Shown in pieces: positions 5,701 to 49,723 of a stretch of DNA of 60,019 bases. The notes below the pieces were generated by a model that saw only the letters and a program-made list of their open reading frames with translations, was not told where the DNA came from and did not search any database. The stretch's first letter is position 1. Each line of letters begins with the position of its first letter. The stretch is taken from contig JBGSPO010000181.1 in NCBI GenBank assembly GCA_041738575.1, forward strand, positions 1 to 60,019. The letters are read 5' to 3'. Source of the DNA: Candidatus Aminicenantia bacterium (GTDB lineage: Bacteria > Acidobacteriota > Aminicenantia > UBA2199). The position numbers and the translations under genes were made by a program.

Positions 5701-5889
5701 CCTGACCTGGCAGATTTCGGGGAACTGGTAGCCGCTGGGAATGGTGTGGATGAGCTGGGTGAAGATCTCGGCGAGGGGCAGGTGGGTTTTGGTCAGCAGC
5801 TCCTCGACCTGGTAGAGGCAGTTGAGCTCCTTGGCCCGCTCGCGCATGTCGTGGAGCAGCTTGTCAATCGAATTTTGCGGCTTGTCCAT
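2707..5889 (-). CDS. multidomain protein: N-terminal KELxCLY sensor-like module, PPDK-type ATP-grasp domain and C-terminal Pol-beta-type nucleotidyltransferase domain
   Basis: About 1060 aa. N-terminus RERAKELNCLYQVEELL...PSGYQFPE. ATP-grasp motifs GGKSAGLFLA and PLIVRSSSLLEDRMGTAFSGKYKS. GPGRWGS...FGTHFFQD module. C-terminal VYVFGSTKNATAGPGSDIDLLLHF (GS...DxD). ATG at 5889 is preceded by GGGGGTG; a GTG at 5895 is an alternative start. Confidence 0.8.
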   Translation of the reverse strand: MDKPQNSIDKLLHDMRERAKELNCLYQVEELLTKTHLPLAEIFTQLIHTIPSGYQFPEICQVRIEYDNQTYISPGYIASSRFQSADIKVDDKVVGRIEVSYTSDVPQTENSYFLKDEHKLLQTVAERIGRTILHLKLEQVSREWETAQKDLSEKNKKEWMVVIDLLRRTDQNLYIHLGRKMVYHLFWNGVMEAKELLKTLSKDRNEAQSEISDDMNRPSQRRSQHELLALSDETFHIAARYLTDKEILGRIQKWIQEDKAGFLSRAINNIDQPLVEIINAITHYHYISGGNYELSPPMEKGLRVSLIRRFFSDDLEFINIAKNHIEVRHFYDLVQRIIYPASGYGRLGGKSAGLFLAQRILSKPGEHSAALGDLKYPKTWYITTDAIMSFLSYNNLEEVNEQKYKEIDQIRLEYQNVVQLLKNSHFPIEIVKGLSMALDDLGDKPLIVRSSSLLEDRMGTAFSGKYKSLFLANQGTKQEKLEALTDAIAEVYASIFGPDPIEYRAERGLLDFHEEMGIMIQEVVGNKVGDYFFPAFAGVAFSNNEFRWSSRIKREDGLSRLVPGLGTRAVDRVSDDYPVLISPGIPNLRVNVTAEETMRYSPKRIDVINLKTCTFETKEIPALLAESGHEYPGIEKIISVYEDDHIYSPSALNLDFSKRNLFVTFEGLITRTPFIKQLQTILKTLQEKMDTPVDIEFASDGKNLYLLQCRPQASTAGNVSSPIPKDIAPDRVIFTANRYISNGKIPDITHVVYVDPEKYSQLENSEEMLEVGRVVGKLNSLLPKRQFILMGPGRWGSRGDIKLGVPVTYSDFNNTAALIEIARKKGNYVPELSFGTHFFQDLVESAIRYLPLYPDDPGIEFNEKFLLTSQNYLPDILPESAALADTIHVIDVPQATSGKVLRVLMNADLGEALGFIATPVSASAATEETREPSETASEDHWHWRLRMAERIANQLDGARFGVKAVYVFGSTKNATAGPGSDIDLLLHFQGSAAQKQELGLWLEGWSLCLAEINFSRTGYQSSGLIDYHLLTDEDIEKKTSYAVKIGAVTDAARLLPLKNQ

Positions 5890-5907
5890 TGTCACCCCCT
5901 GTCCCCC

Positions 5908-15348: not shown

Positions 15349-16530
15349 ATGCCCAGGAAGATCGCCATCGTCGTGCAGCGCTACGGTCTGGAGATCAATG
15401 GCGGGGCCGAGTATCACGCCCGCCTGATCGCCGAAAAACTGAGCCGGCATTTCGCCGTCGAGGTTTTTACTACCACCGCCAGCGATTACGTCACCTGGGC
15501 CCACCACTACCCGGCCGGGCGGCAGGAGCTGAACGGCATCCCGGTCACCCGCTTCCGCGTGCAAAAACCCCGCGATCCCGAGGTCTTCGGGAGGCTGCAG
15601 CGGCATATCTTCCAGGATGAGCATACCCTGGCCGAAGAGTTTCTCTGGCTGGAGGAGGAGGGGCCGCTGGTCCCGGAACTGCTTCACGAGCTCGAGCGCC
15701 GGGAAAAGGAATTCGCCTATTTCATATTTTTCTCGTACCGCTATTACCACTCCTTTCACGGGGTGAAAAAATTCGCTCGCAACGCCATCCTCGTTCCCAC
15801 GGCCGAGCACGATCCGGTGATCTACCTCAGCCTGTTCCAGGATTTCTTCAACCTGCCGGCGGCCATGGTTTACAATTCGCCCGAGGAAAGGGACCTGATC
15901 CACCGGGTTTCCGGCAACCAGGCCGTGCCCGGAGAAGTGGTCGGCGTCGGCTCGGAGATCCCCGAGAGCTTCGACCCGCAGGGGACGCTGGAGCGGCTGG
16001 CGATCGCGGGCAAGTACTTCGTCTACATCGGCCGCCTGGACGAGAACAAGGGGGTCCCGGAATTGTTCGCTTTCTTTCTCCGGCTGAAGGCCGAGGAAGG
16101 CATCGGCCTGAAGCTGGTCCTGGTAGGCAAGGCCTATGTCCCGGTACCGGAAGACCCGGACATCATCCACGTCGGCTTTCAGGAGAACAAGGAAAAATTC
16201 GACCTGCTCCAGGGCGCGGAATTCCTGGTCATGCCGTCGCAATTCGAGTCCCTCTCCATGGTCGTGCTGGAAGCCTGGGCGATCGGCAAGCCGGTCCTGG
16301 CCAACGGCCGCACCGAGGTGCTGCGCGGCCAGTGCCGGCGCAGCCAGGCGGGCCTGTGGTATTCCGACTACGCGGAATTCCGCGAAACATTCCTGGCCTT
16401 GAGCCGCGATCCCGGTCTGCGCGCCCGGCTGGGCGGCAACGGGGAAAAATTCTTCCGGGAAAACTATTCCTGGGAGGTCATCGAGGCCAAGTACCTTGAG
16501 ATCGTCTCCAACCTGGACAAAAGGCCGTGA
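15349..16530 (+). CDS. glycosyltransferase family 1 (GT4-like)
   Basis: C-terminal EFLVMPSQFESLSMVVLEAWAIGKPVLANG (E-x7-E type GT1 signature). 393 aa. Confidence 0.8.
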   Translation: MPRKIAIVVQRYGLEINGGAEYHARLIAEKLSRHFAVEVFTTTASDYVTWAHHYPAGRQELNGIPVTRFRVQKPRDPEVFGRLQRHIFQDEHTLAEEFLWLEEEGPLVPELLHELERREKEFAYFIFFSYRYYHSFHGVKKFARNAILVPTAEHDPVIYLSLFQDFFNLPAAMVYNSPEERDLIHRVSGNQAVPGEVVGVGSEIPESFDPQGTLERLAIAGKYFVYIGRLDENKGVPELFAFFLRLKAEEGIGLKLVLVGKAYVPVPEDPDIIHVGFQENKEKFDLLQGAEFLVMPSQFESLSMVVLEAWAIGKPVLANGRTEVLRGQCRRSQAGLWYSDYAEFRETFLALSRDPGLRARLGGNGEKFFRENYSWEVIEAKYLEIVSNLDKRP

Positions 16531-16549
16531 GTTTCGGCCCCCGGGCCCG

Positions 16550-17917
16550 CTAGTCCTGCAGCTGGTACTTCTTGACCTTGGCCAGCAGGTTGACCCGGGA
16601 GATTCCCAGGATTTTCGCCGCCTGGCTCTTGTTCCCCCCGGTATGGGCCAGGACGTTGCGGATCTGCTCTTTTTCCATTTCGTTCAAGGTCAGCAGCGGC
16701 TTGCCCGTGACTGTTGTTTCCCGGATGCCGGCATTTTCCAGGAAATAGTGGGGCAGCGATTTCTTGTGCAGCTCGGTTCCGGACTCGATGATGATGGCGC
16801 TGTTGATGATGTTCATCAGCTCGCGGATGTTCCCCGGGTAGTCGTAGCGGTTCAGCAGGCGCATGGCCGTGTCCGCTATTTTTTCAATGTTCTTCTGGTT
16901 CTGCACGTTGTATTTATCCAAAAAATACTGGCACAGCAGCGGGATGTCCCCTTTGCGCTCGCGCAGCGGCAGCAGGTAGACCGAGCTCATGTTCAGGCGG
17001 TAGAAAAGGTCCTTGCGGAAATTCCCCTTTTTCATCTCGCTCAGCAGGTCCTTGTTGGTGGCGGCGATGATACGCACGTCCACCTTCTGGTTCTTGGTCG
17101 AACCCAGCCTGAAAAATTCCCCTTCCTGCAGGACGCGCAGCAGCTTCACCTGGATGGGCAGTGCCAGCTCGCCGATCTCGTCGAGGAACAGCGTGCCCTT
17201 GTCCGCCTCTTCCAAAAACCCTTTTTTGGCGGCGCTGGCGCCGGTGAACGCCCCCTTGTCGTGGCCGAAGAACTCGGAGGAGAAAAGCTCGTTGGCGAAC
17301 GTGCCGGCATTCACCGCGACGAAGTTCTGCTCGCGGCGCCGGCTGATGCGGTGGATGGCCTTGGCGATCAGCTCCTTGCCGGTGCCGCTTTCGCCCCAGA
17401 TCAGGATGCTGTTGTCGGGCTGCGCCATTTTTTCGACCATCTGGAACATGGCGATCATCTCGGCGTTCTGGGTGATGATGTCCTGGAAGGCTTCCTTGAA
17501 TTGCAGTTGCTCGCGGGAGAGCGTGGCTTCCGCCGCGGTCGCCCCGCGCGCCCTGCGGGTCTCCAGGACGGTGGTGATGACCTTTAAGAGCTGGTCGTTG
17601 TCCACCGGCTTGGTCAGGTAGTCGAAGGCGCCGAGTTTCATGGCCGAGACGGCCAGCTCGACGTCCTCCACCCCGGTCAGCACGATGGTTTCGATGTCCA
17701 TGCCCTTCTCCTTGATGAACCTCAGGATGTCCAGGCCGCTGACGTCGGGCATGTCCATGTCCAGGAGCAGCAGGTCGTAGTTGTTGGCCTTCAATTCATG
17801 GAAGGCCTTGGAGCTGTTGACCAGGGTGGCGATCTCGTAGGCGCCGGTCTGCAGCAGCATGATGTTCAGGTAATTTAAAACCGCTTGATCGTCGTCGATG
17901 GCCAGGATTTTTTTCAT
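16550..17917 (-). CDS. sigma54-dependent response regulator (NtrC-family bacterial enhancer-binding protein)
   Basis: REC domain (LLLDMDMPDVSG). AAA+ domain with GESGTGKELIAKAIH and the sigma54-contact GAFTGA loop. C-terminal Fis-type HTH NKSQAAKILGISRVNLLAKVKKY. The ATG overlaps the kinase stop (ATGA). Confidence 0.92.
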   Translation of the reverse strand: MKKILAIDDDQAVLNYLNIMLLQTGAYEIATLVNSSKAFHELKANNYDLLLLDMDMPDVSGLDILRFIKEKGMDIETIVLTGVEDVELAVSAMKLGAFDYLTKPVDNDQLLKVITTVLETRRARGATAAEATLSREQLQFKEAFQDIITQNAEMIAMFQMVEKMAQPDNSILIWGESGTGKELIAKAIHRISRRREQNFVAVNAGTFANELFSSEFFGHDKGAFTGASAAKKGFLEEADKGTLFLDEIGELALPIQVKLLRVLQEGEFFRLGSTKNQKVDVRIIAATNKDLLSEMKKGNFRKDLFYRLNMSSVYLLPLRERKGDIPLLCQYFLDKYNVQNQKNIEKIADTAMRLLNRYDYPGNIRELMNIINSAIIIESGTELHKKSLPHYFLENAGIRETTVTGKPLLTLNEMEKEQIRNVLAHTGGNKSQAAKILGISRVNLLAKVKKYQLQD

Positions 17918-19992
17918 GATGGTTCCTTCGGCGTTACCGGGATATGGATCGCGAACGTCGTGCCAACGCCGGGCTTGCTTTCCACGTCGATCCGCCCCTT
18001 GTGTTCCTTGATGATGCCGTAGGCAATGGAAAGGCCGAGCCCGGTGCCCCCCTGGTTGCGCTTGGTGGTGAAGAAGGGGTCGAATATCTGCTTCAGGGTC
18101 TTCTCGTCGATGCCCTTGCCGTCATCGCTGATGCGCAGCAGGTTCTCGCCCTCCTTTTCCAGGAATGCCGTGCGGATGACGATGGCGCCCATTTTCTTTT
18201 CGATCGCCTGCGAGGCGTTGATCAGGATGTTGACCACCACCTGCTCCAGGCGCTGGAAGTTGCCCCGGACCTTGGGGATGCTTCCGTCGATCTCCAGCTT
18301 GACCTTGGCCTTGCGCCCGATCTGGTTGGCCACCAGCCGCAGGCAGCTGTGGATGATCTCGTTGAGGTCCACCTCGTCGTTCAGCACTCCGTCGTCGCGC
18401 TTGGCGAACTTGCGCAGCCCCTCAACGATGGTCTTGATGCGGTTGGCCCCCTGAGCCATGTCTTCCAGCAGGATCAGGATGTTGCTGCGGAAGACGTCGT
18501 AGTTCAAGCGGGCGATCTGCAGCTTCCGGTCGTTGCGCGCATGCTCGTCCAGCAGGGGCAGGATGTCCTTCATCGCCTCCTGGATGATCGACACGTTGCC
18601 GCGGATGAAGGTGTTGGGATTGTTGATTTCGTGGGCGATGCCCGAGACCAGCTGGCCCAGCGACGCCAGCTTGTCGGTCTGCATCAGCTGCAGTTCCATG
18701 TTCTTCTGCTTGGTGATCCGGCGCGAGAACTCCAGCACGCCCTCCACCCCGCCCAGGTCGTCGAATATCGGATAGGCCTGCAGCAGGTAGTATTCATCGC
18801 CGTACTTCTCTTCCGTGGTGATGGACCTTTTCTGCTGGAACACCATGGCTCCCGGGCATTGCTCGCATGGCAGTTCCCGGTTGAATATCTTGGCGAAGCA
18901 CTTGCCGCTGTCGGCCCCTTCCTTGCGGTTGGCCATCTTGATGTTGAATTCGCGGTCGATCATGACGACCTGGTCGGTGATGGCGTCGAAGAGGGTCTGC
19001 AGCTTGTTCCTGCTTTCGTTCAGCTTTTCGGTGAGCGAAACGAGCTCGGCATTCTTTTTGACCAGCAGGTTCTTCTGGTTCTCCAGGTCGGCCGTTCTTT
19101 TTTGGATGGTTTTTTCCAGGTTCTCGTTCTGCTCGATCAGCTTCTGTTCCAGCTCCTTGCGCAGGCGGATATCCTTGTACACCTCCTCGATGCAGCGCCG
19201 GCCGTCGAAGTCGACCAGTATAAATGAGCCGATGACCGGGCACTGCTGGCCCCGGGAGTCGATGAGGCTCATCTCCATGCCCCCGAAAAATCCCTTTTCC
19301 TTGAGTTTTTTGAAGATGATGGGGCGGATGCGGGGAATGTTGGCGTACAGCTTGTCCCGGACGAAGTTCAGCTTGACCGATCCGTCCTCGGGGTAGTGGA
19401 GCATGCGATAGAAGGCGCGGTTGGCCTTGAGGATGTCGCCGTTCATCTCGGAGATGACGATCCCGTCCGGGGCGTTCTCGAAAAGGTCCTCGAAGCGCTT
19501 GGTCGATTTTTCCAGCTCCCGGGTCTTGGCCTTGACCAGGTCCTTGAGGTTGCCGACGTATTTCTTCAGCTCCAGCTGCAGCTCGTGCTTTTCCACGGCT
19601 TTGGAGATCATGCGGCCGATCTCCTTGATGAGCTTCTTCTCCTCCTCGAGAAAGGGGCTCGCTTTCACATAGCCGACCTTGACGTAGCCCCGGCTTTGGC
19701 CGTTGACCACGATGTCGGCCTGGAGGGCGGACTTGGCTGTTTCACAGGAAGCGCTCTTGGCCGGATACTGGACCTGGTCGAGGACGATGACGGCGCAGGC
19801 CTTCTCGGGATACTGGAACCCCTTGGGCAGGCTGGCGGCGGAATTTTCCAGGATCTGCCCCAGGCTTTTTCCCGATTCGATCTGGGAACTGACTTTATAA
19901 AGGCATTCCAGTTCCTTGATCCGTTCTTTGAGGTCCAGCTCCAGCTTGTGGGCGCACTCGATGCACTCTTTGCGCGGAGTCGTTTTTTTCAC
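17914..19992 (-). CDS. sensor histidine kinase with a KELxCLY N-terminal module and PAS domains
   Basis: H-box HEINNPNTFI, N-box NILINASQA, G-boxes DDGKGI and GGTGLGLSI. Two PAS-like segments. N-terminus KERIKELECLYKVSS...PKGFQYPE. GTG start preceded by AGAGGG. Confidence 0.9.
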   Translation of the reverse strand: MKKTTPRKECIECAHKLELDLKERIKELECLYKVSSQIESGKSLGQILENSAASLPKGFQYPEKACAVIVLDQVQYPAKSASCETAKSALQADIVVNGQSRGYVKVGYVKASPFLEEEKKLIKEIGRMISKAVEKHELQLELKKYVGNLKDLVKAKTRELEKSTKRFEDLFENAPDGIVISEMNGDILKANRAFYRMLHYPEDGSVKLNFVRDKLYANIPRIRPIIFKKLKEKGFFGGMEMSLIDSRGQQCPVIGSFILVDFDGRRCIEEVYKDIRLRKELEQKLIEQNENLEKTIQKRTADLENQKNLLVKKNAELVSLTEKLNESRNKLQTLFDAITDQVVMIDREFNIKMANRKEGADSGKCFAKIFNRELPCEQCPGAMVFQQKRSITTEEKYGDEYYLLQAYPIFDDLGGVEGVLEFSRRITKQKNMELQLMQTDKLASLGQLVSGIAHEINNPNTFIRGNVSIIQEAMKDILPLLDEHARNDRKLQIARLNYDVFRSNILILLEDMAQGANRIKTIVEGLRKFAKRDDGVLNDEVDLNEIIHSCLRLVANQIGRKAKVKLEIDGSIPKVRGNFQRLEQVVVNILINASQAIEKKMGAIVIRTAFLEKEGENLLRISDDGKGIDEKTLKQIFDPFFTTKRNQGGTGLGLSIAYGIIKEHKGRIDVESKPGVGTTFAIHIPVTPKEPS

Positions 19993-20021
19993 CTTGAATG
20001 CCCTCTATTTCAACGGGGGTA

Positions 20022-23000
20022 TTATAGCACCAATTTGTTCTTGATTTTGAACTGCAGGTAGTTTTCGCTGGCCAGCAGCGTTTGTTTTTCCAGTTTGCAG
20101 GTCGCCGGGTCCAGGACCACGGGGAGGAATTTTGCCTTGCCGTTGGCCGTGGCGAAGGCCTCGCGGAACAGGGGGTCGCCCCAGAAGGCGCCCATGGCCA
20201 GCCCGGCGTAATAGGGATTGACCCGGCCGATCTCGGCGAATATCTCTTTGCCGGCAGCGGGATCCAGCGCCATGCCTAGTTTTTCCGCCAGCAGCCCCAC
20301 GACCTCCAGGTTGGTCTTCCCGGCCGCAGGCGGCACCAGGGCGTCGCTGCGCTGCACGCGACGGTCGCAGGCCGTGAAAGTGCCGGTGCTCTCCAGGGGC
20401 GTCGACATGGGCAGGACCACGTCGGCCCCGGCGGCGGTGGCGGTCAGGAAGAAATCGGCGACCAGCTTGAATTTCACCTTGGCCAGCAGGCCGGCGGCCG
20501 GGGCGTAGGCCAGCGGATCTTCGCCGAATACCAGCAGGGCCTTGACGTCGCCCTTTTTCAGCCGGGCTTCCAGGTCAACGGGCTTGAAGATCTGCTGCAA
20601 GGGCACGCCCCACAGCTCCTGCAGGCGGTCGACTTCTTTCTGTCCGGGACGGATGAAACCGGGGAGGTAGCGGCTGTCGACCCCCATGTCCAGCAGCCCC
20701 TGGGAGTTGGCATAATCGCGGACCAGGACCAGCCCGTTGCCCGGCTGCCCGGTCTTGCCCAGGAGCAGCAGCAGGTTGCCCAGGGACTTGATGTCATCGC
20801 GTGATTTTTCCAGGAATTGGTCCATGCCGTAGACGACAAGGATATTGGTTGCCTGGGCCAGCATGGCGACGGCGCGGGCGAATTTATCCCCCTGGATGCC
20901 GGTCTTGGCGACCACCTGCTCGGCATCGATCTGCTGGATCGCGGCATGGAATTTTGCGAAGTTTTCCGTGCGCGCGTCGATGAATGCCCGGTCAGCCCGG
21001 CCGGCGGCGATCAGGGCGTTGGCCAGCCCCGCGACCAGGGCCGTGTTGGTGCCGCGCTTGGGGTCGAGCCAGAGGTCGGCGATCCGGCTCAGGGGATTTT
21101 CCGATGAGTTCATCGTGATGAGGCGCGCCCCTTTTTTCATGGCTTCCTTGATCTTCAGCTCGGCAACCAGGTTGTTCTCGGTCAGCTCGGCATTGACGAC
21201 CATGATGACATCGGCTCTCTGGAATTCATCCATGGTCGTGGTGGAGGTGGTCAGGCCGAACATGTCGTCCAGGGCGTCAAGATCGCGGCCCATGAACAGG
21301 TTGCTGAAGCTGCCGATCATGTTGCTCTTGAACCCGGTGCGCACCCATTTCTGCAGTTGGTACAGCTCCTCGTTGGTCAGCCTGGGCGATGCGAATACGG
21401 CCACGGCTTCCGGACCGTGCTTCTTGACCAGGGCCTGGATCTTGGCAACGGCCAGGTCGAGCGCTTCTTCCCAGGAGGCCTTGTGCAGGCCGGCCTTGCC
21501 CTTGACCAGGGGGGCGCGCAGGCGCTGGTCGTCCAGCATGTAGCGGTAGCCGAAACGGCCCTTGTGGCATAGGTAGCCCTTGTTGTGCGCGGCATCGGCG
21601 GTGCCCAGCGCGGCGTAGGCGTCGGGGCCGTAGACTTTGTATTGCAGCTCGCAGCCCACGGAACAGAAATGGCAGATGGCTGAATGCTTCGTGCCGGCCC
21701 AGGGACCGGGCTTGGCGAAGGGCAGCTTCTCGGCGATGGCGCCGGTCGGGCAGGCGGCGATGCAATTGCCGCAGGAGATGCAGTTGGTCTCCAGCAGCTT
21801 TTTTTCCATGGAAGGCCGCATCACCGATCGGAAGCCGCGGTAGACGAACCCCAGGGCCGATACGCGGAGTATTTCCGAGCAGGTGCGAACGCAGCGCCCG
21901 CAGGCGATGCATTTGTTGGGGTCGAGAGTGATGAAGGGGTGGGCCTTGTCCACCTTGTATTTTCTGACCTCGCCCACGAATTTGCTGATGTCCACCCCGA
22001 AGTCCACGGCGTGCTTGCGCAGGTCGCAGTCGAAGTACGCGGAACAGCCGCACTCCAGGCAGCGCCCGGTCTCGCTGTCCGCCTGTTCAGAACTGAAGCC
22101 GAGCTCGACTTCGTCGAATGTTTTTGCCCGCTCGGCCGCCGGGAGCTCCGGCATTTTTTCCTTTGGCAGCCTGGCAAAATCGGAAAAATCGCTGTCCGGG
22201 ATGTCCCCGAAAGCCTCTTTGCGGCTGATGAATTCCTCAGGTTTGCCCTGGGCCTTGCCCGTGCGCACGAAGTGGTCGATGGCGTTGGCCGCGATCTTGC
22301 CGTGGGCGATGGCGTCGATGGCCACGGCCGGGCCGGTGGCCATGTCGCCGCCGGTGAAAACGCCGGGAAGCGAGGTTTCAAAGGTGTCTTCGCTGAAGAC
22401 CAGCGTGTTGTGCCGGGTCGACTTCAGTTGCGGATCCTTCTGCAGGCCGCACAGGTCCACGTCCTGGCCGATGGCCGAGATCACAAAATCGCAGGGCAGA
22501 CTGTACTCGGAACCCGCTTTCGGCACGGGGCTGCGCCGGCCGCTGGCGTCGGGTTCGCCCAGTTCCATGCGGATGCAGGTCAGGGCCTTGAGCCGGCTGT
22601 TCTCCGCCACCAGTTCGGTCGGGGCCGAGAGCAGGATCAGCTCCACGCCTTCCTCGAGGGCGGCGTCGATCTCCATGGGATGGGCCGGCATCTCGTTACG
22701 CGTGCGGCGGTAGAGAAGGGTGACCTTGGCAGCGCCCAGCCTGCGGGCGCTGCGCGCGGCGTCGAGGGCCGTGTTACCGCCGCCGACGACCACCACGTTG
22801 CCGTAGATCTCGGGTTTAGCCTCGCACTGCAACTGCCAGAGAAAGTCGATGCCGCCGAGGACGCCCTGGATCTCGTCTTCGCCGGGCAGGCGCATGCCCT
22901 TGGCCTTCTGGGCGCCGAAGGCGAGATAGACGGCGTCAAATCCCCGTTCTTTCAGGTTTTCGATCGAGAAATCCTTTCCCAGTGCGGAATTGGTCTTTAC

Positions 23001-23774
23001 GGTCACGCCCAGGTTGGTGATCCAGGAAATCTCCTTGTCCAGCAACTCCTTGGGCAGCCGGTACTCGGGGATGCCGTAGCGCAGCATGCCGCCGAGGTGC
23101 GGCGACTTCTCGAACAGGGTGACGGCATAGCCTTTCAGCACCAGGTAATAGGCGCAAGTCAGGCCGGCGGGCCCGCCGCCGACGATGGCGACTTTCTTGC
23201 CGTTGGCGGCCGGGACGGCCGGCGTCCAGGGGTCCTCGATGTCGATATCGGTGGCGTAGCGCTTCAGGTAGTCGATGCCCACGCGCTCGTCGACGCGGTT
23301 GCGGCGGCAGGCCACTTCGCACTCGCGCACGCAGACGCGGCCACAGACCAGGGGCAGGGGGTTGGTCTCCTTGATCAGGCGCACGGCTTCCCGGGGTTTG
23401 CCCATGGCGATCAGGGCGATGTAGCCCTGGACGTCGACGCCGGCCGGACAGGTCTGCTGGCAGGGGGCGAGGCAGTCGGCATAGTGGTTCGACAGCAGCA
23501 GCTCCAGCGCGGTCTTTCTGGCCTCGCGGATGCGCGGGTTGTCGGTATGGATGACCATTTTGTCGGCCACCGGGCTGGAGCACGAAGGGATCAGTTTTTT
23601 GACGCCCTCGACCTCCACCACGCAGAGGTAGCAGGAGCCGTAGGGCGGCAGCTTGGGCTCATGGCACAGGGTGGGGATCTCGGCGATATGGTTCTCCCGG
23701 ATCACGTCCAGTATGGTTTGATTGGCGCGGGCGGTCACTTCCCTGCCGTCGATGGTGAGTTTTAGTTTGTCCAT
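20022..23774 (-). CDS. fusion oxidoreductase: [2Fe-2S] ferredoxin, GltD/NfnB-like NAD(P)H flavoprotein, 2x[4Fe-4S] and a formate-dehydrogenase-like molybdopterin (MopB) domain
   Basis: 1250 aa. Ferredoxin motif CHEPKLPPYGSCYLCVVEV. GltD-type CLAPCQQTCPAGVDV...NPLPLVCGRVCVRECEVAC and VAIVGGGPAGL / VVVVGGGNTALD. Ferredoxin clusters CIACGRCVRTCSE and CISCGNCIAACPTG. MopB cluster CHFCSVGC...CHKGRFGY. ATG at 23774 is preceded by AAGGGGA; the TTG at 23792 in the track is less likely. Confidence 0.85.
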   Translation of the reverse strand: MDKLKLTIDGREVTARANQTILDVIRENHIAEIPTLCHEPKLPPYGSCYLCVVEVEGVKKLIPSCSSPVADKMVIHTDNPRIREARKTALELLLSNHYADCLAPCQQTCPAGVDVQGYIALIAMGKPREAVRLIKETNPLPLVCGRVCVRECEVACRRNRVDERVGIDYLKRYATDIDIEDPWTPAVPAANGKKVAIVGGGPAGLTCAYYLVLKGYAVTLFEKSPHLGGMLRYGIPEYRLPKELLDKEISWITNLGVTVKTNSALGKDFSIENLKERGFDAVYLAFGAQKAKGMRLPGEDEIQGVLGGIDFLWQLQCEAKPEIYGNVVVVGGGNTALDAARSARRLGAAKVTLLYRRTRNEMPAHPMEIDAALEEGVELILLSAPTELVAENSRLKALTCIRMELGEPDASGRRSPVPKAGSEYSLPCDFVISAIGQDVDLCGLQKDPQLKSTRHNTLVFSEDTFETSLPGVFTGGDMATGPAVAIDAIAHGKIAANAIDHFVRTGKAQGKPEEFISRKEAFGDIPDSDFSDFARLPKEKMPELPAAERAKTFDEVELGFSSEQADSETGRCLECGCSAYFDCDLRKHAVDFGVDISKFVGEVRKYKVDKAHPFITLDPNKCIACGRCVRTCSEILRVSALGFVYRGFRSVMRPSMEKKLLETNCISCGNCIAACPTGAIAEKLPFAKPGPWAGTKHSAICHFCSVGCELQYKVYGPDAYAALGTADAAHNKGYLCHKGRFGYRYMLDDQRLRAPLVKGKAGLHKASWEEALDLAVAKIQALVKKHGPEAVAVFASPRLTNEELYQLQKWVRTGFKSNMIGSFSNLFMGRDLDALDDMFGLTTSTTTMDEFQRADVIMVVNAELTENNLVAELKIKEAMKKGARLITMNSSENPLSRIADLWLDPKRGTNTALVAGLANALIAAGRADRAFIDARTENFAKFHAAIQQIDAEQVVAKTGIQGDKFARAVAMLAQATNILVVYGMDQFLEKSRDDIKSLGNLLLLLGKTGQPGNGLVLVRDYANSQGLLDMGVDSRYLPGFIRPGQKEVDRLQELWGVPLQQIFKPVDLEARLKKGDVKALLVFGEDPLAYAPAAGLLAKVKFKLVADFFLTATAAGADVVLPMSTPLESTGTFTACDRRVQRSDALVPPAAGKTNLEVVGLLAEKLGMALDPAAGKEIFAEIGRVNPYYAGLAMGAFWGDPLFREAFATANGKAKFLPVVLDPATCKLEKQTLLASENYLQFKIKNKLVL

Positions 23775-23788
23775 GGCTGCTTTCCCCT

Positions 23789-25555
23789 TCAATCCTTGCT
23801 GATGGCCTTGAAATTACAGGTTTCGAAACATTTGCCGCACTTGATGCACAGGGCCTGGTCGATGTGGTGCACTTGTTTCTTCTCGCCGCTGATGGCCTGG
23901 GACGGGCAGACCCTGGCGCAGAGCGTGCAGCCGGTGCACTGGTCTTCCAGGATGGTGAAGGTCAGGAGCGGGGCGCAGCTGTGCGCCGGGCATTTCCTGT
24001 CGCGGATATGGGTTTCGTATTCGTCGCGGAAATACTTCAGCGTGGTCAGGACCGGGTTGGGCGCGGTCTGCCCCAGGCCGCAGATGGTGTTGTTGCGGAT
24101 CTTGTCGGCGAGGTCCTCCAGCAGCTCGATGTCTCCCTGCCGGCCGCGGCCGTCGGTGATACGTTCCAGGATCTCCAGCATGCGCTTGGTGCCGATGCGG
24201 CAGAAGGTGCATTTGCCGCAGCTCTCGTCCTGGGTGAAGCGCAGGAAGAACTTGGCCATCTCCACCATGCAGGTGGTCTCATCCATGACCACCATGCCGC
24301 CCGAGCCCATGATCGCCCCGGTCTGGTTGATCTTCTGGTAGTCGATCTGCAGGTCGCCCATGGCGGCCGGGATGCAGCCGCCCGAGGGGCCGCCCATCTG
24401 CACGGCCTTGAATTTTTTGCCGTCGCGGATGCCGCCGCCGATGTCGTAAATGATCTCGTTGATGGTCAGGCCCATGGGGACTTCGACCAGCCCGCCGCGG
24501 GCGATCTTGCCGGCCAGGGCGAACACTTTGGTCCCCTTGCTGTTCTCGGTGCCCATGGCGGCGAAGGTCTCGGCGCCGTTCATGATGATCCAGGCAATGT
24601 TGGCATAGGTCTCGACGTTGTTGATGTTGGTCGGCTTGCCCCACAGTCCTTTTTGCGCGGGGAAGGGCGGCCGGAAACGCGGCATGCCGCGCTGGCCCTC
24701 GATGGAGGCGATCAGGGCGGTCTCCTCGCCGCAGACGAAAGCGCCGGCTCCCTCCTTGATCTTGATCTTCAGGTTCATTTTGGAACCGAAGATGTTTTTG
24801 CCAAGGAATCCCTTTTCCGTGGCCTTCCGGATGGAGTGCTGCAGCCGGCGCACGGCCATGGGGTATTCGGCCCGGACGTAAATATAGGCCTCGTCGGCGC
24901 CGCAGGCGAAGGCGCCGATCATCATGCCTTCCAGCACCGAGTGCGGATCGCCCTCCAGGGTGCTGCGGTCCATGAAAGCGCCGGGGTCTCCCTCATCGGC
25001 GTTGCAGATGATGTATTTCTTGTCTCCCGCCGCCTGGCGGCAGAAGCGCCACTTCATGCCGGTCAGGAAGCCGGCGCCGCCGCGGCCGCGCAGCCCGGAG
25101 TTCAGGATGATCTCGATGACCTGCTCTGGGGTGTACTCCTTCAGCACTTTCCGGATGGCCTGATAGCCGCCGCTGGCGATGTATTCGTCGATGGAATCGG
25201 GATCGATGATGCCGCAGTTGCGCAGGACGATGCGCTTCTGCTTGGCGAAGAAGGTGTCCTCGGCAGCGGCGTCCCCGCCTTTGACGATCCACTCGGCGAT
25301 GGGCTTGTCCTGCAACACCTGCTCGTCGAGGATGCGCTTGACCTTGTCCGGGGTCACGTTGCCGTACATGTTGCTGCGGCCCGCCTCATCGATGACCTCG
25401 ACCAGGACCTCCTGGTAGCAGTTGCCCATGCAGCCGGTTTCCACGAGCCGGACCGGTATGTTTTCCCTGGCGATCGCTTCCTGCAATGCCGTATGGACCT
25501 TTTCCCCGCCGGCCGAAACTCCGCATGTGCCGAGGCCTACTTTGATGGTCTTCAT
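23789..25555 (-). CDS. NuoF/HydB-like NADH-binding FMN flavoprotein with an N-terminal thioredoxin-like [2Fe-2S] domain and C-terminal 2x[4Fe-4S]
   Basis: 588 aa. Motifs GLRGRGGAGFLTGMKW, NADEGDPGAF, ESCGKCTFCRIG and C-terminal CTGCTLCARVCP / CIKCGKCFETC. N-terminal GTCGVSAGG...GCMGNC. Confidence 0.9.
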   Translation of the reverse strand: MKTIKVGLGTCGVSAGGEKVHTALQEAIARENIPVRLVETGCMGNCYQEVLVEVIDEAGRSNMYGNVTPDKVKRILDEQVLQDKPIAEWIVKGGDAAAEDTFFAKQKRIVLRNCGIIDPDSIDEYIASGGYQAIRKVLKEYTPEQVIEIILNSGLRGRGGAGFLTGMKWRFCRQAAGDKKYIICNADEGDPGAFMDRSTLEGDPHSVLEGMMIGAFACGADEAYIYVRAEYPMAVRRLQHSIRKATEKGFLGKNIFGSKMNLKIKIKEGAGAFVCGEETALIASIEGQRGMPRFRPPFPAQKGLWGKPTNINNVETYANIAWIIMNGAETFAAMGTENSKGTKVFALAGKIARGGLVEVPMGLTINEIIYDIGGGIRDGKKFKAVQMGGPSGGCIPAAMGDLQIDYQKINQTGAIMGSGGMVVMDETTCMVEMAKFFLRFTQDESCGKCTFCRIGTKRMLEILERITDGRGRQGDIELLEDLADKIRNNTICGLGQTAPNPVLTTLKYFRDEYETHIRDRKCPAHSCAPLLTFTILEDQCTGCTLCARVCPSQAISGEKKQVHHIDQALCIKCGKCFETCNFKAISKD

Positions 25556-25574
25556 GTGCTTCTCCTTGCTGCGC

Positions 25575-26093
25575 TCAGGCGGTTTGGGTTTTTTGGGCCT
25601 TGGACTTGTATTCTTTCAGCAATTGCTGGACTTTCTTCGGCGTCAGCCGCCCGAAGGTCTCGTCGTTGATCATGATGACGGGCGACAGGGAGCAGCAGCC
25701 GAGGCAGGCCACCTTCTGCAGGGTGAACAGCCCGTCCTCGGTGGTGTCGTTGCCGCTGATCTGCAGCTCATCCTCGATAGTGCCGGCAATGCGCTCGGAA
25801 CCGTTGACGTGGCAGGCGGTGCCGTCGCAGATCTTGACCAGGAATTTTCCCAGCGGCTTGAGGCGAAACTGCGAGTAGAACGTGATCACGCCGTAGATCT
25901 CGGCGGCCGGGATGCCCACGATCTCGCTGATCTGGTCGATGGCGGTAGCGGGGATATAGCCGTACGTGTCCTGGGCCGCCTGCAACAGGGGGATCAGGGC
26001 TCCCTTTTCCCCCTCGTAATTCCAGAGATCGACCTTGAAGCCGGCCAGCCCGTTCTTTTTCTGCTGCGCTTTCAGATTGTCATTGGGTGTCAT
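25575..26093 (-). CDS. NuoE/HydC-like thioredoxin-fold [2Fe-2S] ferredoxin subunit
   Basis: 172 aa. Contains ICDGTACHVNG...VACLGCCSLSPVIMINDE, the classic NuoE cluster-binding pattern. Confidence 0.9.
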   Translation of the reverse strand: MTPNDNLKAQQKKNGLAGFKVDLWNYEGEKGALIPLLQAAQDTYGYIPATAIDQISEIVGIPAAEIYGVITFYSQFRLKPLGKFLVKICDGTACHVNGSERIAGTIEDELQISGNDTTEDGLFTLQKVACLGCCSLSPVIMINDETFGRLTPKKVQQLLKEYKSKAQKTQTA

Positions 26094-26117
26094 GCACCCA
26101 TTATCTTATATTTCAGC

Positions 26118-27128
26118 TTACATTTCAAATAGCTTGATGATGGGCATTTCCTTGATGCGCAGCACCCCGTCCAGGGGCTTGATCTTGGCCAGGATGTTGC
26201 GGTCGATCTCGGCGAAGCTGGTGCCCTGCATCAGCAGCACGATGTCGTACTTGCCGGCGATGCAGTCGCAGGAAACGACCTGGTCGTTGATGTAAAGGGT
26301 GGGATAGATCTGCTCCAGTTTTTCCTTCTCGATCTCCAGGAAGACATAGGACGAAGCGCTCTTCCAGAAATTGGCGTTGTTCGCGGCGTCGGGATTTCCC
26401 TTTTCGCGTCCCAGGGCCTTGTCGAACGTGCCGATGATGTTGGCGACGCTCTCGGGCAACTGCGGCGGGTCCACGGGTAGCAGCACGGCTTCTTTCACGC
26501 CGGCGATTTTCTTGATCTTGTTGTCCACCGTGGCTTGGATATCGGCCATGTTCCCCGCCTGCAGCAACAGGGCCAGGTCGAAATCGCCCTTGATGGCGTC
26601 GCAGTACAGCACCTGGTCCATGAAGTACAGGTCCTGGTACACCGCGGACAGGTCGGCCGCGTCGCTGAAGTTCAACAGGACATAAGCGCTGACCGACCGA
26701 TCCCCCGCCGGCTCGGCGCTTTCCTTGCCGGCAACCGCGGGCGCCGCCGTCTTCAGAGGGATGTCCGCGAGGATCCGGCTCAGTTCCTCGGCGGTGAAAG
26801 GCTTTTCCAGGTAGGCATCGGCCTTCTCGGACCTGGCATCGGCTTCGGTCGTCTCGTTGCCGTAGCCGGTGATCACCACCACCGGCAGCTCGGGATAGTT
26901 GAACTTGATCACCTTGAGAAGCTTGATGCCGTCGATGTCGGGCAGGCGCAGGTCGACCACCACGTAGTGGAAGGGGGCCTGGTTTTTTTTGATGTTCTCC
27001 AGCGCCTTCAGCCCGCACATGCCGCTTTCGCAGGATTCGGTCTCATATCCTTTTTGCAGCAGCCCCAGGGCCAGGCTGCGCTGCAGGGAAGCCTCGTCAT
27101 CGATCAGCAACACTTTCTTTTCATTCAT
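26118..27128 (-). CDS. response-regulator receiver domain fused to two Lrp/AsnC-type RAM (ligand-binding) domains, with no recognisable DNA-binding domain
   Basis: REC: KKVLLIDDE...VVVDLRLPDIDG...VVVITGYG. Two about 75-aa repeats follow: VSAYVLLNF...VLYCDAIKGDFDLALLLQAGNMADIQATV...IAGVKEAVLLPV and SSYVFLEIE...VVSCDCIAGKYDIVLLMQGTSFAEIDRNI...LDGVLRIKEMPII. RBS AAGGAG before the ATG at 27128. Confidence 0.75.
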   Translation of the reverse strand: MNEKKVLLIDDEASLQRSLALGLLQKGYETESCESGMCGLKALENIKKNQAPFHYVVVDLRLPDIDGIKLLKVIKFNYPELPVVVITGYGNETTEADARSEKADAYLEKPFTAEELSRILADIPLKTAAPAVAGKESAEPAGDRSVSAYVLLNFSDAADLSAVYQDLYFMDQVLYCDAIKGDFDLALLLQAGNMADIQATVDNKIKKIAGVKEAVLLPVDPPQLPESVANIIGTFDKALGREKGNPDAANNANFWKSASSYVFLEIEKEKLEQIYPTLYINDQVVSCDCIAGKYDIVLLMQGTSFAEIDRNILAKIKPLDGVLRIKEMPIIKLFEM

Positions 27129-27187
27129 TTTATTCTCCTTTATTATTTCGAACTCGGGGTTCTCTTTTCCGTCCCCACTATCCAATA

Positions 27188-27203
27188 AGCATAAGACGTG
27201 CCA
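27188..27203 (-). promoter_or_regulatory. sigma54 (-24/-12) promoter upstream of the REC-RAM / NuoEF operon
   Basis: The minus strand reads TGGCACGTCTTATGCT, matching the TGGCACG-N4-TTGCW consensus with GG and GC at the canonical 10-nt offset. It lies about 60 nt upstream of the ATG at 27128. A sigma54 activator is encoded at the end of the same operon. Confidence 0.7.
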
Positions 27204-27542
27204 ATTTGGAAAAGTCGCCAAAGTAAGGGTTTTGGGGGCAGGCGCCGGTTTCGCCGGCGGCAGTGGTGTACAAATATTTTATGCTGATCCGCGGAAAACG
27301 CCGTCAGTGCTTGGTTTCGAAGAAGTGTAACATTATTTGCCGCTTACGCTTTATCCGAGGTCTCTTGTCAGCGCTGGTTTCCGGGCGGCAATTTATTTTA
27401 TATATATTTATTTTATAATTTATATTAAAATCATTGTCTTTATACGGAGGTTTCATGGGTTGGAGAAATCGTCCATCGTGGCCGATCGCATTGAATGCGG
27501 CCGGATTCTTTGCTACTCTTATTCATTCTGGAGGGCGGCACC

Positions 27543-28370
27543 ATGAACAGGATCGTTGAAAAAGAACTGCTGTCGGAAAATGTGGTGAAGCTGGTCGTCG
27601 AGGCCCCGCAGGTTGCGCGCAAGCAGTGCCCGGGCCAGTTCGTCATCGTGCGTTTCGATGAAAAAGGGGAAAGGATCCCGCTGACCATCGCCGATGCCGA
27701 CCGGGAAAACGGCACCATCACCCTGATCATCCAGAAGGTCGGGACCTCGTCCTGCAAGATCACGAGCCTGAACCCCGGCGATTCGCTGTCGGACGTATCC
27801 GGGCCTCTAGGCCGGCCAACCCATGTCGAGAAGCTCGGGACGGTCCTGGCCTGCGGCGGCGGCGTGGGCATTGCCCCCCTCTATCCCATTGCCAGGGCTT
27901 TCAAGGAGGCGGGCAACAGGCTGATCGCCGTTCTGGGCGCGCGCAACCGCGAGCTTCTGATCCTGGAAAAGGAGATGGCCGCGTTCGCCGATGAAACGAT
28001 CGTCATGACCGATGACGGCTCTTATGGAAAAAAAGGCGTGATCACGGTCGGGATCGAGGAGGTGCTGCAGCGCGAGCCCGTTCACCTGGCGGTAGCCATT
28101 GGGCCGGCCGTCATGATGAAATTCGTCGCCCTGCTGACCAAGAAGTACAATGTCCCGACCATCGCCAGCCTGAACACCATCATGGTGGACGGCACGGGCA
28201 TGTGCGGCGCCTGCCGGGTGTCGGTGGGCGGAAAGACCAAGTTCGTCTGCGTGGACGGACCCGAGTTCGATGCCCACCAGATCGACTATGACGAGATGAT
28301 CAAGCGCTTGAATACCTACAAGGCGGAAGAAAAGGTCTCGTTCGACGGCTATATGAAATCGTTGCCATAA
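27543..28370 (+). CDS. nfnA: NADH-dependent reduced ferredoxin:NADP oxidoreductase small subunit (NfnA / SudB-like, PyrK family)
   Basis: 275 aa. Motifs PGQFVIVRFDEKGERIPLTIAD, GPLGRP, GGGVGIAPL, TDDGSYGKKG and MVDGTGMCGACRV...FVCVDGPEF. Confidence 0.85.
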   Translation: MNRIVEKELLSENVVKLVVEAPQVARKQCPGQFVIVRFDEKGERIPLTIADADRENGTITLIIQKVGTSSCKITSLNPGDSLSDVSGPLGRPTHVEKLGTVLACGGGVGIAPLYPIARAFKEAGNRLIAVLGARNRELLILEKEMAAFADETIVMTDDGSYGKKGVITVGIEEVLQREPVHLAVAIGPAVMMKFVALLTKKYNVPTIASLNTIMVDGTGMCGACRVSVGGKTKFVCVDGPEFDAHQIDYDEMIKRLNTYKAEEKVSFDGYMKSLP

Positions 28371-28382
28371 AGGAGACACACC

Positions 28383-29870
28383 ATGCCGGTCGATCCCCAG
28401 GAATTGCACGCCGACAGGAGCCAGGAATGGCGCAACGAATTGCGTGGCAAGCTCAGCGCCAAGGAACGGAGCGCCCTGCCCCGCGTAAAAATGCCCGAGA
28501 TGAAGGCGCGGGAAAGGAGCCGGGGCTTCCAAGAGGTCAACACCGGCCTGAACGAGGAGATGGCGGTCCAGGAGTCCAAGCGCTGCCTGGACTGCTCCAC
28601 CCCGACCTGCATCACGGGTTGCCCGGTGAACATCAACATTCCCGGGTTCATCAAGTTGATCGAGAAGGGGGATTTCGGCGCCGCGGCCAGGAAATTGAAG
28701 GAGACCAACGCCCTGCCCGCCGTCTGCGGCCGGGTCTGCCCCCAGGAGGTCCAGTGCGAGGCCAACTGCGTTTACCAGAAGATGAAAAAACCGCCGGTGG
28801 CCATCGGTTACCTGGAGCGGTTCGCCTCGGATTGCGAGCGCCTGGCGGGCAGCATCGCGATCCCGGTCATCGAAAAAAAGAGCCCGCTCCGCGTCGCTGC
28901 CGTGGGCTCGGGGCCGGCCAGCCTGACCTTCGCCGGCCAGATGGCCAAGTGGGGATACGGCGTGACCGTTTTCGAAGCCTTGCACGAGCTGGCCGGCGTC
29001 TTGAGCTACGGCATTCCCGAGTTCCGCTTGCCCAAGAGCATCGTGCGCTCGGAGATCGCCTACCTGGAAGCCATCGGCGTGTCCTTTGAACGGAACGTGA
29101 TCGTCGGCAGGACCCTCACCGTCGAGGACATGAGGGAGCAGGGTTTCCGGGGATTCTTTATCGGCAGCGGGGCCGGGCTGCCGAAGTTCATGCATATCCC
29201 CGGCGAAAATTCCATCGGCATCTATTCTTCCAACGAATACCTCACCCGCGTCAACCTGATGAAGGCTTACCAGTTTCCCCGCTATGACACGCCGATCGTG
29301 CGCGGCAAACGCGTGGCGGTCATCGGCGGCGGCAACACGGCCATGGATTCGGTGCGCACCGCCATCCGCCTGGGGGCCGACAAGGCGATGATCGTCTACC
29401 GCCGCTCCGAGCAGGAAATGCCCGCCCGCATCGAAGAGGTGCACCACGCCAAGGAGGAAGGGGTCGAGTTCCTGACCTTGACCAATCCCATCGAGTATCT
29501 CGCCGACAGCGCTGGACGGGTGCAACAGATGAAGGTGCAGAAAATGGGCCTGGGCGCGGCGGATGATTCGGGCCGGAGGCGCCCGGTGGTGATCGAGGGC
29601 TCGGAATACGTGATCGACGTCGACACGGTGGTCGTGGGCGTGGGCACCGACCCCAACCCGCTGATCCCGCGGGCGATCCAGGGGCTCGAAGTCACCAAGT
29701 GGGGGACCATCGTGGTCAACGAGGAGACCATGCAGACCGCCGTGCCGGACATTTTTGCCGGCGGCGACATCGTGCGTGGCGGCGCCACCGTCATCCTGGC
29801 CTTGGGAGACGGCAAAAAAGCGGCCGCGTCCATGCGCGATTACCTTCTGGAAAAATTCCCCGGGACCTGA
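28383..29870 (+). CDS. nfnB: NfnB / GltD-family NADPH oxidoreductase (glutamate synthase small-chain homologue)
   Basis: 495 aa. Motifs RCLDCSTPTCITGCPVNINIP, NALPAVCGRVCPQEVQCEANC, VAAVGSGPASL, VAVIGGGNTAMD and FAGGDIVRGGATVILA. Confidence 0.88.
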   Translation: MPVDPQELHADRSQEWRNELRGKLSAKERSALPRVKMPEMKARERSRGFQEVNTGLNEEMAVQESKRCLDCSTPTCITGCPVNINIPGFIKLIEKGDFGAAARKLKETNALPAVCGRVCPQEVQCEANCVYQKMKKPPVAIGYLERFASDCERLAGSIAIPVIEKKSPLRVAAVGSGPASLTFAGQMAKWGYGVTVFEALHELAGVLSYGIPEFRLPKSIVRSEIAYLEAIGVSFERNVIVGRTLTVEDMREQGFRGFFIGSGAGLPKFMHIPGENSIGIYSSNEYLTRVNLMKAYQFPRYDTPIVRGKRVAVIGGGNTAMDSVRTAIRLGADKAMIVYRRSEQEMPARIEEVHHAKEEGVEFLTLTNPIEYLADSAGRVQQMKVQKMGLGAADDSGRRRPVVIEGSEYVIDVDTVVVGVGTDPNPLIPRAIQGLEVTKWGTIVVNEETMQTAVPDIFAGGDIVRGGATVILALGDGKKAAASMRDYLLEKFPGT

Positions 29871-49575: not shown

Positions 49576-49723
49576 TTCCGCCTCCTGAGTGTCGGGCAAG
49601 CCAAGCGGATTGGACGGCTTTTTACCCAAAATTGGCAAAAAGTCCCCCGCCGCTTCAACCGCCAGGATTATGATGAAGAAAAATGGTTTTTACAACCCCC
49701 GGCCCGCAGGGAAGCGGGAGGGC

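Follow-up and report, generated by a model that had tools for sequence, protein, structure and literature searches.

We analysed a stretch of 60,019 nt (hereafter the window) from a Candidatus Aminicenantia bacterium (GTDB lineage Bacteria; Acidobacteriota; Aminicenantia; UBA2199; GenBank assembly GCA_041738575.1, contig JBGSPO010000181.1, positions 1 to 60,019). Three genes on its minus strand, nfnC, nfnB and nfnA (Table 1), encode a NuoE-like protein, a HydB-type NuoF and a giant fusion protein of 1250 amino acids (aa). Judged from sequence motifs and sequence matches to solved structures, nfnCBA very probably encodes a flavin-based bifurcating NADH/NADPH/ferredoxin transhydrogenase of the Nfn-Bfu/StnABC group (type 1 BfuABC).

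The three subunits and their cofactor sites

The genes are tightly packed, with 19 nt between nfnC and nfnB and 14 nt between nfnB and nfnA, and the coordinates of the open reading frames (ORFs) agree with the original prediction (gaps of 19 and about 14 nt). The open frame of nfnA spans 20022..23792 (minus strand). The ATG at 23774, from which the second gap is counted, was taken as the probable start codon because the resulting 1250 aa is the length of most homologues. The predicted identities of the three products (a NuoE-like protein, a HydB-type NuoF and a giant fusion) were confirmed by Pfam, NCBIfam and PDB matches. Annotation with hidden Markov models, which had been proposed as a check, detected Fer2_4, Fer4_20, Pyr_redox_2 and Molybdopterin in the large protein.

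Table 1. Positions of the nfnCBA genes, the domains of NfnA and the neighbouring features in the window.
Feature	Position	Strand	Basis or remark
nfnC / stnA, NuoE/HydC-like subunit, 172 aa	25575..26093	-	Pfam, PDB matches
nfnB / stnB, HydB-type NuoF subunit, 588 aa	23789..25555	-	Pfam, PDB matches
nfnA / stnC, large subunit, whole gene, 1250 aa	20022..23774	-	PDB matches nearly full length
nfnA, N-terminal [2Fe-2S] domain, aa 1-95	23490..23774	-	Fer2_4; cluster A1 ligands C37, C48, C51, C65
nfnA, GltD/NfnL-like module, aa 96-510	22245..23489	-	Fer4_20, Pyr_redox_2; clusters A6/A7
nfnA, NuoG-type cluster region, aa 566-690	21705..22079	-	Fer4_Nqo3, Fer4_7
nfnA, predicted vestigial Fdh/MopB-like domain, aa 691-1250	20022..21704	-	Pfam, alignment to formate dehydrogenases, conservation
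REC-RAM gene, first gene of the cassette, 336 aa from ATG 27128	26118..27128	-	Pfam, synteny
Cytoplasmic PAS histidine kinase, 692 aa	17914..19992	-	Pfam, conservation, synteny
NtrC-type sigma-54-dependent response regulator	16550..17917	-	REC + AAA+ (GAFTGA at residues 222-227) + HTH_8; Pfam, synteny
Predicted sigma-54 (-24/-12) promoter, TGGCACGTCTTATGCT	27188..27203	-	about 60 nt 5' of the REC-RAM ATG; one mismatch to TGGCAC-N5-TTGCW
Two imperfect palindromes, TGTAA/TTACA half-sites	27325..27349 and 27266..27284	-	conserved blocks in 18 aligned upstream regions
Canonical NfnS/NfnL pair	27495..28370 and 28383..29870	+	divergent from the cassette, 1.4 kb from the Nfn-Bfu operon

NfnC is a 2Fe-2S_thioredx domain protein (Pfam E 5e-53). 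The ligands of its [2Fe-2S] cluster C1 are C89, C94, C130 and C134, and these cysteines are 100% conserved in 35 loci. In NfnB, Pfam detected Complex1_51K, NADH_4Fe-4S and a C-terminal 2x[4Fe-4S] domain; the latter had been predicted and is borne out also by eight conserved Cys (residues 540-580), the ligands of clusters B3 and B4. The loop GLRGRGGAGF for flavin mononucleotide (FMN) and NAD(H) is conserved, and the ligands of cluster B1 are C446/449/452/492. A putative Zn site (B2) comprises C522, C527 and possibly H516, within the segment HIRDRKCPAHSC. The N-terminal part of NfnB had been described as a thioredoxin-like [2Fe-2S] domain. The thioredoxin-like fold was detected, though weakly (Pfam E 0.007); the [2Fe-2S] cluster is doubtful, as the site found there (B5) consists of C11, C42, C46 and E49, and of the three solved homologues, two (C. 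saccharolyticus and T. sibiricus) have Zn at such a 3Cys+Glu site, which in S. ovata was modelled with [2Fe-2S] (PMC11829005, PMC12018979). From their motifs NfnB and NfnC appear to possess every feature of BfuB and BfuC, namely the FMN/NAD(H) site, B1, the 2x[4Fe-4S] domain, the thioredoxin-like domain and the [2Fe-2S] cluster.

Homologues of NfnA were collected by a protein search that gave 120 clusters from several independent sources, with query coverage of 84-100% and identity of 53-90%. Conservation in NfnA was scored after aligning the window protein to 119 homologues of full length (120 sequences). Pfam domains follow one another along the protein as Fer2_4 (aa 3-79, E 1e-17), Fer4_20 (101-180), Pyr_redox_2 (193-492), a 4Fe-4S dicluster domain (613-680), Molybdop_Fe4S4 (698-746) and Molybdopterin (751-1150). 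The predicted sequence of modules, i.e., a [2Fe-2S] domain, a GltD/NfnB-like FAD module with two [4Fe-4S] clusters, two ferredoxin-type clusters and a MopB domain, was thus found in that order. The clusters listed in the prediction are all represented by ligand motifs, but its list was incomplete, since the motif C572-x2-C-x-C-x5-C583 had been overlooked. This CxxCxCx5C motif (C572/575/577/583) precedes a 2x[4Fe-4S] fold (C622/625/628/632 and C665/668/671/675) in the NuoG-type region, and all Cys of the region are 100% conserved. The Cys ligands of A1 are conserved at 0.97. The GltD-like module carries the FAD motif GGGPAG at residue 199 and the NADPH-type motif GGGNTA...YRR at residue 355, both conserved. 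The MopB-like domain keeps the [4Fe-4S] ligands C701/704/708/736. Counted in this order (A1, A6/A7, the two parts of the NuoG-type region and the MopB-like domain), the conserved Cys number 4 + 7(+Lys) + 4 + 8 + 4, and the motifs fit the cluster set of the solved enzymes, one [2Fe-2S] and six [4Fe-4S].

The ligands of A6 and A7 are C101, C105, C109, C144, C148, C152 and C156, together with K171. It has been shown that A7 of C. saccharolyticus NfnA is a [4Fe-4S] cluster bound by three Cys and one Lys, and that the Lys is essential for bifurcation (PMC11829005). C109, C148, C152 and K171 align to C108, C147, C151 and K170 of that protein and are invariant in the 120 sequences, so that the window NfnA is predicted to have this family-specific 3Cys+Lys cluster. 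The position of C114 in C. saccharolyticus (residue 115 of the window NfnA) is occupied by Val, as in T. sibiricus NfnA. C144 is invariant in the clade, and Ile stands at the same position in C. saccharolyticus. This suggests that the fourth ligand of A6 has been relocated, from C114 there to C144 here.

Relationship to characterised enzymes

The assignment to Nfn-Bfu follows from the PDB search, in which solved Nfn-Bfu chains were the best matches for all three proteins. The genes lie in the order nfnC-nfnB-nfnA, and each matches the corresponding chain of 9BOV, 8OH5 or 9N5U best. For NfnA the best matches, well ahead of all others, are 9bov_A (1178 aa, E 7e-271), 8oh5_C (1172 aa, E 6e-241) and 9n5u_A (963 aa, E 3e-194); it aligns over residues 4-1170 to 9bov_A and over residues 1-1032 and 1071-1216 to 8oh5_C. 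NfnB gave bit scores of 855/855/844 to the 9bov_B/8oh5_B/9n5u_B group (E about 1e-256 to 1e-253) and of 757-620 to HydB chains of hydrogenases, and NfnC matched 9bov_C, 9n5u_C and 8oh5_A best (E 1e-53 to 7e-47). NfnB is 62% identical to both the C. saccharolyticus and the S. ovata protein. Over approximately the first 890 aa, NfnA is 48% identical to its C. saccharolyticus and 43.5% identical to its S. ovata counterpart. As in BfuA, a [2Fe-2S] N-terminal domain, an inserted NfnL/GltD-like module and a NuoG/Fdh-like (formate dehydrogenase-like) domain are found in one polypeptide. The class given in the original prediction, a flavin-based bifurcating enzyme of the HydABC/Bfu family, is well supported by these matches and by the ligand motifs.

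The closest characterised system is NfnABC of C. saccharolyticus (9BOV/9BP5, PMC11829005), which has the same three subunits and gene content and is the top PDB match for all three proteins. Its NfnA, like that of the window, has N-terminal, NfnL-like and Fdh/NuoG-like domains with one [2Fe-2S] and six [4Fe-4S] clusters, flavin adenine dinucleotide (FAD) and the 3Cys+Lys cluster A7, and the two systems share the 3Cys+Glu B5 site and an incomplete pterin site. The C. saccharolyticus protein has 1178 aa compared with 1250 aa here, the window MopB-like domain being longer and more Fdh-like. StnABC of S. ovata (8OH5/8OH9; PMC7483475, PMC10482914) has the same architecture, with HydB-like StnB, HydC-like StnA and, in StnC, a NuoG-like frame that accommodates a GltD domain and ends in an inactive FdhF-like part; it was measured as a reduced ferredoxin:NADP+ oxidoreductase that depends on NADH. 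The stn genes are found downstream of metVF, and S. ovata, an acetogen, has no NfnAB, whereas the window has an adjacent NfnAB pair and a two-component/sigma-54 cassette. Nfn-Bfu of T. sibiricus (9N5U; PMC9304861, PMC12018979) and NsoABC of T. litoralis belong to the same family. The window NfnB matches T. sibiricus NfnB with E 6e-253; with 963 aa, the NfnA of the archaeon is about 290 aa shorter, and it is monomeric and lacks cluster A4, whereas the window protein keeps all cluster motifs.

Relationships to other systems are more distant. HydABC-type [FeFe] and [NiFe] bifurcating hydrogenases have a homologous BfuB/BfuC core (HydB chains, E 1e-185 to 1e-227), but the window complex has neither an H-cluster nor a NiFe module; an NADPH/FAD module would handle the third substrate. 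SfrB (GltD-like) and SfrA (NuoG/Fdh-like) of G. sulfurreducens are related to the two parts of StnC, to which they are reported to be 39.9% and 27.8% identical (PMC7483475). They are separate polypeptides without a NuoEF-type module, as correctly noted in the prediction, whereas the window has fused modules after NuoE-like and NuoF-like genes. Canonical NfnAB/NfnSL (T. maritima 4YLF, E 5e-89; P. furiosus 5JCA, E 6e-84) has in NfnB/NfnL a homologue of the GltD-like module in the window NfnA. Canonical NfnAB catalyzes the same overall reaction but is an unrelated complex in which bifurcation takes place at the FAD of NfnL itself, and the nfnCBA locus contains no NfnS partner (PyrK-like, with FAD and [2Fe-2S]).

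It had been proposed that the locus may be a new variant merging the SfrAB and Stn designs, on the premise that Stn lacks a MopB domain. This premise is wrong and the claim of novelty falls with it, because the fusion already exists in StnC of S. ovata (1172 aa) and in NfnA of C. saccharolyticus (1178 aa). The 2020 discovery paper described StnC as a fusion of GltD-like and NuoG-like parts with a MopB-family [4Fe-4S] and noted the similar NsoC of Thermococcus litoralis (PMC7483475), and NfnA of C. saccharolyticus has a GltD and NuoG/Fdh-like fusion likewise (PMC11829005). The architecture is that of a standard Nfn-Bfu large subunit. The group has been classified as type 1 BfuABC, BfuB clade 53 (PMC9304861), and the locus appears to be a new member of this known, structurally solved family, from an under-studied phylum.

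The reference enzymes catalyze NAD+-dependent ferredoxin reduction by NADPH (PMC7483475, PMC10482914, PMC11829005, PMC9304861). The substrates, reaction direction and oligomeric state of the window complex would be as in these homologues. A mechanism can be drawn by homology to the solved enzymes, building on the gene order, domain order, ligand motifs and close homology seen directly. The FAD of the GltD/NfnL-like module in NfnA would receive a hydride from NADPH. From A7 (3Cys+Lys), electrons would then move one at a time to A6, to the CxxCxC and then the ferredoxin-type clusters, to the [2Fe-2S] cluster at the N-terminus, and on to B1 and the FMN of NfnB. Bifurcation is expected at the B1-FMN-C1 'flavobicluster': a hydride would be transferred to NAD+ at the FMN, while low-potential electrons would travel via the mobile [2Fe-2S] domain of NfnC and the C-terminal 2x[4Fe-4S] domain of NfnB to ferredoxin. 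The prevailing direction in vivo is probably the opposite one, from NADH and reduced ferredoxin to NADPH. The Fdh-like C-terminal domain would serve as a non-catalytic scaffold with a dead-end cluster branch.

The formate dehydrogenase-like domain and alternative explanations

The prediction of a molybdopterin-oxidoreductase domain in the fusion holds for its presence but not for its completeness, as the domain is truncated and has no metal ligand. In the alignment to 9t1s_L, the NfnA segment 'sfsnlFMgrdl' stands opposite 'HCARLXHSATV', so that F827 replaces the Sec/Cys and M828 the His. Across the clade the Sec/Cys column holds Leu, Ile, Val, Phe or Met, and the column of the catalytic His is mostly Asn. 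The pterin-capping domain IV (PF01568, Molydop_binding) had no match in the last 150 aa of NfnA, even at E<=1. Columns conserved at 95% or more make up 18% of the MopB part and 4% of the C-terminal tail, the lowest values in NfnA; they account for 34-63% of the N-terminal, GltD and Fe-S cluster domains and for 27% of the inter-domain linker. The sequence therefore has neither the Sec/Cys ligand and catalytic His nor the C-terminal domain IV that mark Mo/W formate dehydrogenases. Because the Sec/Cys-His pair is replaced, domain IV is missing and conservation is lowest here, we consider the domain to be a non-catalytic vestige; an active formate dehydrogenase domain was rejected on the ligand, cap-domain and conservation evidence. 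For the same reasons it fits the published view of the Fdh-like domain as a structural remnant with a dead-end cluster branch that mediates oligomerisation (PMC11829005, PMC12018979). In C. saccharolyticus NfnA this domain is pterin-free and its pterin site incomplete (PMC11829005). In S. ovata the formate dehydrogenase annotation of Stn was noted, and formate oxidation was assayed without any activity being found (PMC7483475).

When residues 691-1250 are searched by themselves, genuine formate dehydrogenases (E about 1e-64) are closer matches than C. saccharolyticus NfnA (1e-52) or S. ovata StnC (1e-46), and the clade therefore seems to retain a more complete MopB fold. Elsewhere in the window, an ORF at 54901..55944 (plus strand) has a C-terminal SelB winged-helix domain (PF09107, E 1e-10), and the organism probably makes selenoproteins.

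Several observations weigh against the assignment to Nfn-Bfu. NfnA of this clade is 43-48% identical to the characterised enzymes, one presumed ligand of A6 is at a different position (C144 compared with C114 in C. saccharolyticus), and the MopB-like domain is nearer to true formate dehydrogenases than are its C. saccharolyticus and S. ovata counterparts. A canonical NfnAB pair lies 1.4 kb away, and a strictly redundant function is not self-evident. As for the promoter listed in Table 1, the sigma-54 pattern is not enriched window-wide (26 matches, 32 expected). An enzyme that merely shares the Bfu scaffold would be a non-bifurcating NAD(P)H:ferredoxin or NADH:NADP+ oxidoreductase, comparable to SfrAB or to NuoEF-type formate dehydrogenases and hydrogenases. 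Non-bifurcating BfuABC homologues do exist (R. capsulatus Fdh, Nqo and the S. wolfei hydrogenase; PMC9304861), and coupling cannot be proved from sequence alone. We nevertheless regard this explanation as improbable: NfnB shares 62% identity with two NfnB subunits for which bifurcation was shown by experiment and keeps two domains characteristic of bifurcating BfuB (ferredoxin-binding 2x[4Fe-4S] at the C-terminus, thioredoxin-like at the N-terminus), the ligands of the NfnC [2Fe-2S] cluster are present, and in the PDB search with NfnB the beta subunits of Fds-type formate dehydrogenases and Nqo1 reached only 1e-114 to 1e-125, against about 1e-256 for NfnB chains.

The original prediction would allow for a new kind of Bfu-type enzyme whose MopB domain provides a third active site, with formate or some other molybdoenzyme substrate being coupled to NAD(P)H and ferredoxin. 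The match of the isolated C-terminal domain to true formate dehydrogenases would fit such an enzyme, as would several recognisable pterin-scaffold motifs (e.g., GQPGNGLVLVRDYANSQG compared with GKPGTGVNPLRGQNNVQG) and the SelB-like ORF, which indicates that the organism may use selenocysteine. The residues that would have to act are lost, however, with Phe at the Sec/Cys position and Met at the His position (hydrophobic residues and mostly Asn, respectively, in the clade); there is no detectable Molydop_binding cap, the domain and its tail are the least conserved parts of NfnA, and the homologous domains lack pterin in C. saccharolyticus and formate activity in S. ovata (PMC11829005, PMC7483475). 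A third catalytic site is thus very unlikely. Still more remote is the concern that the 1250-aa ORF arose by a frameshift or assembly error near 21700-22300, the junction of the GltD and ferredoxin/MopB parts, which would have fused a GltD-like gene with an Fdh/NuoG-like gene. Independent assemblies (NCBI, JGI, ENA and Logan) contain at least 119 homologues that share the Pfam domain content and are 1150-1300 aa long; this also answers the proposal to look for the fusion in other genomes. A genome scan recovered 45 loci, and every contig long enough to hold nfnA has the same full-length gene; moreover, purified proteins of 126-130 kDa with this architecture have solved structures. No point was found in favour of an artefact, and it was rejected because full-length homologues are abundant in independent assemblies. 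A bifurcating transhydrogenase of the Nfn-Bfu group remains the preferred reading of nfnCBA.

The six-gene cassette and its neighbourhood

The nfnCBA genes are flanked by regulatory genes, and the order REC-RAM, nfnC, nfnB, nfnA, PAS kinase, NtrC-type regulator recurs in almost every related locus, to as low as about 55-60% identity, in Aminicenantes as well as in Syntrophorhabdales/Syntrophus. The REC-RAM, kinase and sigma-54 regulator genes are absent from the single locus labelled Clostridia at 50% identity (L033). The REC-RAM protein combines a response-regulator receiver with two Lrp/AsnC-type (RAM) ligand-binding domains; Pfam found no DNA-binding domain in it. Its start codon and ribosome-binding site are conserved in 18 aligned loci, and 24 nt separate the gene from nfnC. 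The kinase has H454 as phospho-acceptor, an invariant C365-x10-C376-x2-C379 in the second PAS domain and an invariant C30. One may speculate that its Cys motif binds a metal or an Fe-S cluster and acts as a redox sensor.

Upstream of the first gene, at a distance of 60-100 nt, an element TGGCAY-N5-(T/A)TGCW is found in 29 of the 30 related loci that carry the REC-RAM gene. What supports the prediction of a sigma-54 promoter in the window is the position of the element and its conservation in these relatives. The two palindromes, read from an alignment of 18 upstream regions, are plausible candidates for upstream activator sites of the NtrC-type regulator. A scan of 15800..27600 for sigma-70 promoters and terminators gave no convincing internal minus-strand terminator between the genes and nothing decisive. 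Based on the conserved synteny, the promoter element in 29 of 30 loci, the palindromes and the GAFTGA activator, we infer that the six genes form an operon transcribed from the sigma-54 promoter and activated by its own two-component system, i.e., autoregulated. Literature searches on Aminicenantes Nfn, Syntrophorhabdus NuoEF, and Stn/Nfn with sigma-54 returned nothing on this clade or its regulation.

The canonical NfnS/NfnL pair was identified by PRK06222 (E 8e-121) and TIGR01316 (544 bits, above the cut-off), and in the PDB it matches T. maritima NfnAB (4ylf_B, E 7e-155) and NfnI of P. furiosus best. About 20 Aminicenantes loci keep the pairing of NfnAB with Nfn-Bfu, which the Syntrophorhabdales group lacks. 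In published surveys, Stn and Nfn are 'almost mutually exclusive' in acetogens, and Thermococcaceae have one or the other of the two systems (PMC9304861, PMC12018979). Because of this near mutual exclusion, the side-by-side occurrence of NfnAB and Nfn-Bfu is what one would expect least in the region. The assignment of nfnCBA is not altered by it.

Closest of all, at 75-90% identity, are loci in metagenome-assembled genomes (MAGs) of Aminicenantes/Acidobacteriota. A second group, at about 60% identity, comprises MAGs of Syntrophorhabdales, Syntrophus and other 'Deltaproteobacteria'. Earlier surveys found Stn/Nfn-Bfu mainly in Firmicutes, Synergistetes, some Proteobacteria and Euryarchaeota (PMC9304861, PMC7483475), and the occurrence in Aminicenantes and Syntrophorhabdales is therefore a modest taxonomic extension of the family. 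Six loci with 74-77% identity and full Aminicenantes-type synteny (L005, L009, L011, L012, L013 and L035) carry Patescibacteria, Chrysiogenales or Clostridia in their titles; the MAGs concerned were probably mislabelled or misbinned.

Other genes of the window include one for a 1932-aa bacterial alpha-2-macroglobulin-like protein (43840..49638, minus strand) with MG2, A2M_BRD, A2M and bMG10 domains. Two genes, at 48..1826 (plus) and 2707..5895 (minus), encode PPDK_N (pyruvate phosphate dikinase nucleotide-binding) proteins, one of which has 1062 aa and a C-terminal nucleotidyltransferase domain. A Glu/Leu/Phe/Val dehydrogenase gene adjoins them (5957..7243, minus).

The enzyme itself adds little beyond extending a characterised family to Aminicenantes (Acidobacteriota) and Syntrophorhabdales-type genomes. 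Its recognition corrects the annotations 'formate dehydrogenase major subunit' and 'NAD(P)-binding protein' in many MAGs. What appears mildly new is the cross-phylum six-gene cassette behind a conserved sigma-54 promoter and, in Aminicenantes, the NfnAB pair next door. It is conceivable, though doubtful, that the 1250-aa clade (Aminicenantes, Syntrophorhabdales and Syntrophus-type) is a functionally differentiated Nfn-Bfu that travels as a self-regulated six-gene module. If so, the two transhydrogenases could serve different redox or nutrient conditions or run in opposite directions, and the better preserved Fdh-like domain or the REC-RAM protein could add a further input, such as allosteric control, electron storage or another partner. 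The sigma-54 promoter, the two palindromes and the PAS kinase with its invariant CX10CX2C would provide a regulatory model for a Bfu enzyme. With both kinds of ferredoxin-dependent transhydrogenase adjacent, the region is a natural case that could show why anaerobes keep one or the other.

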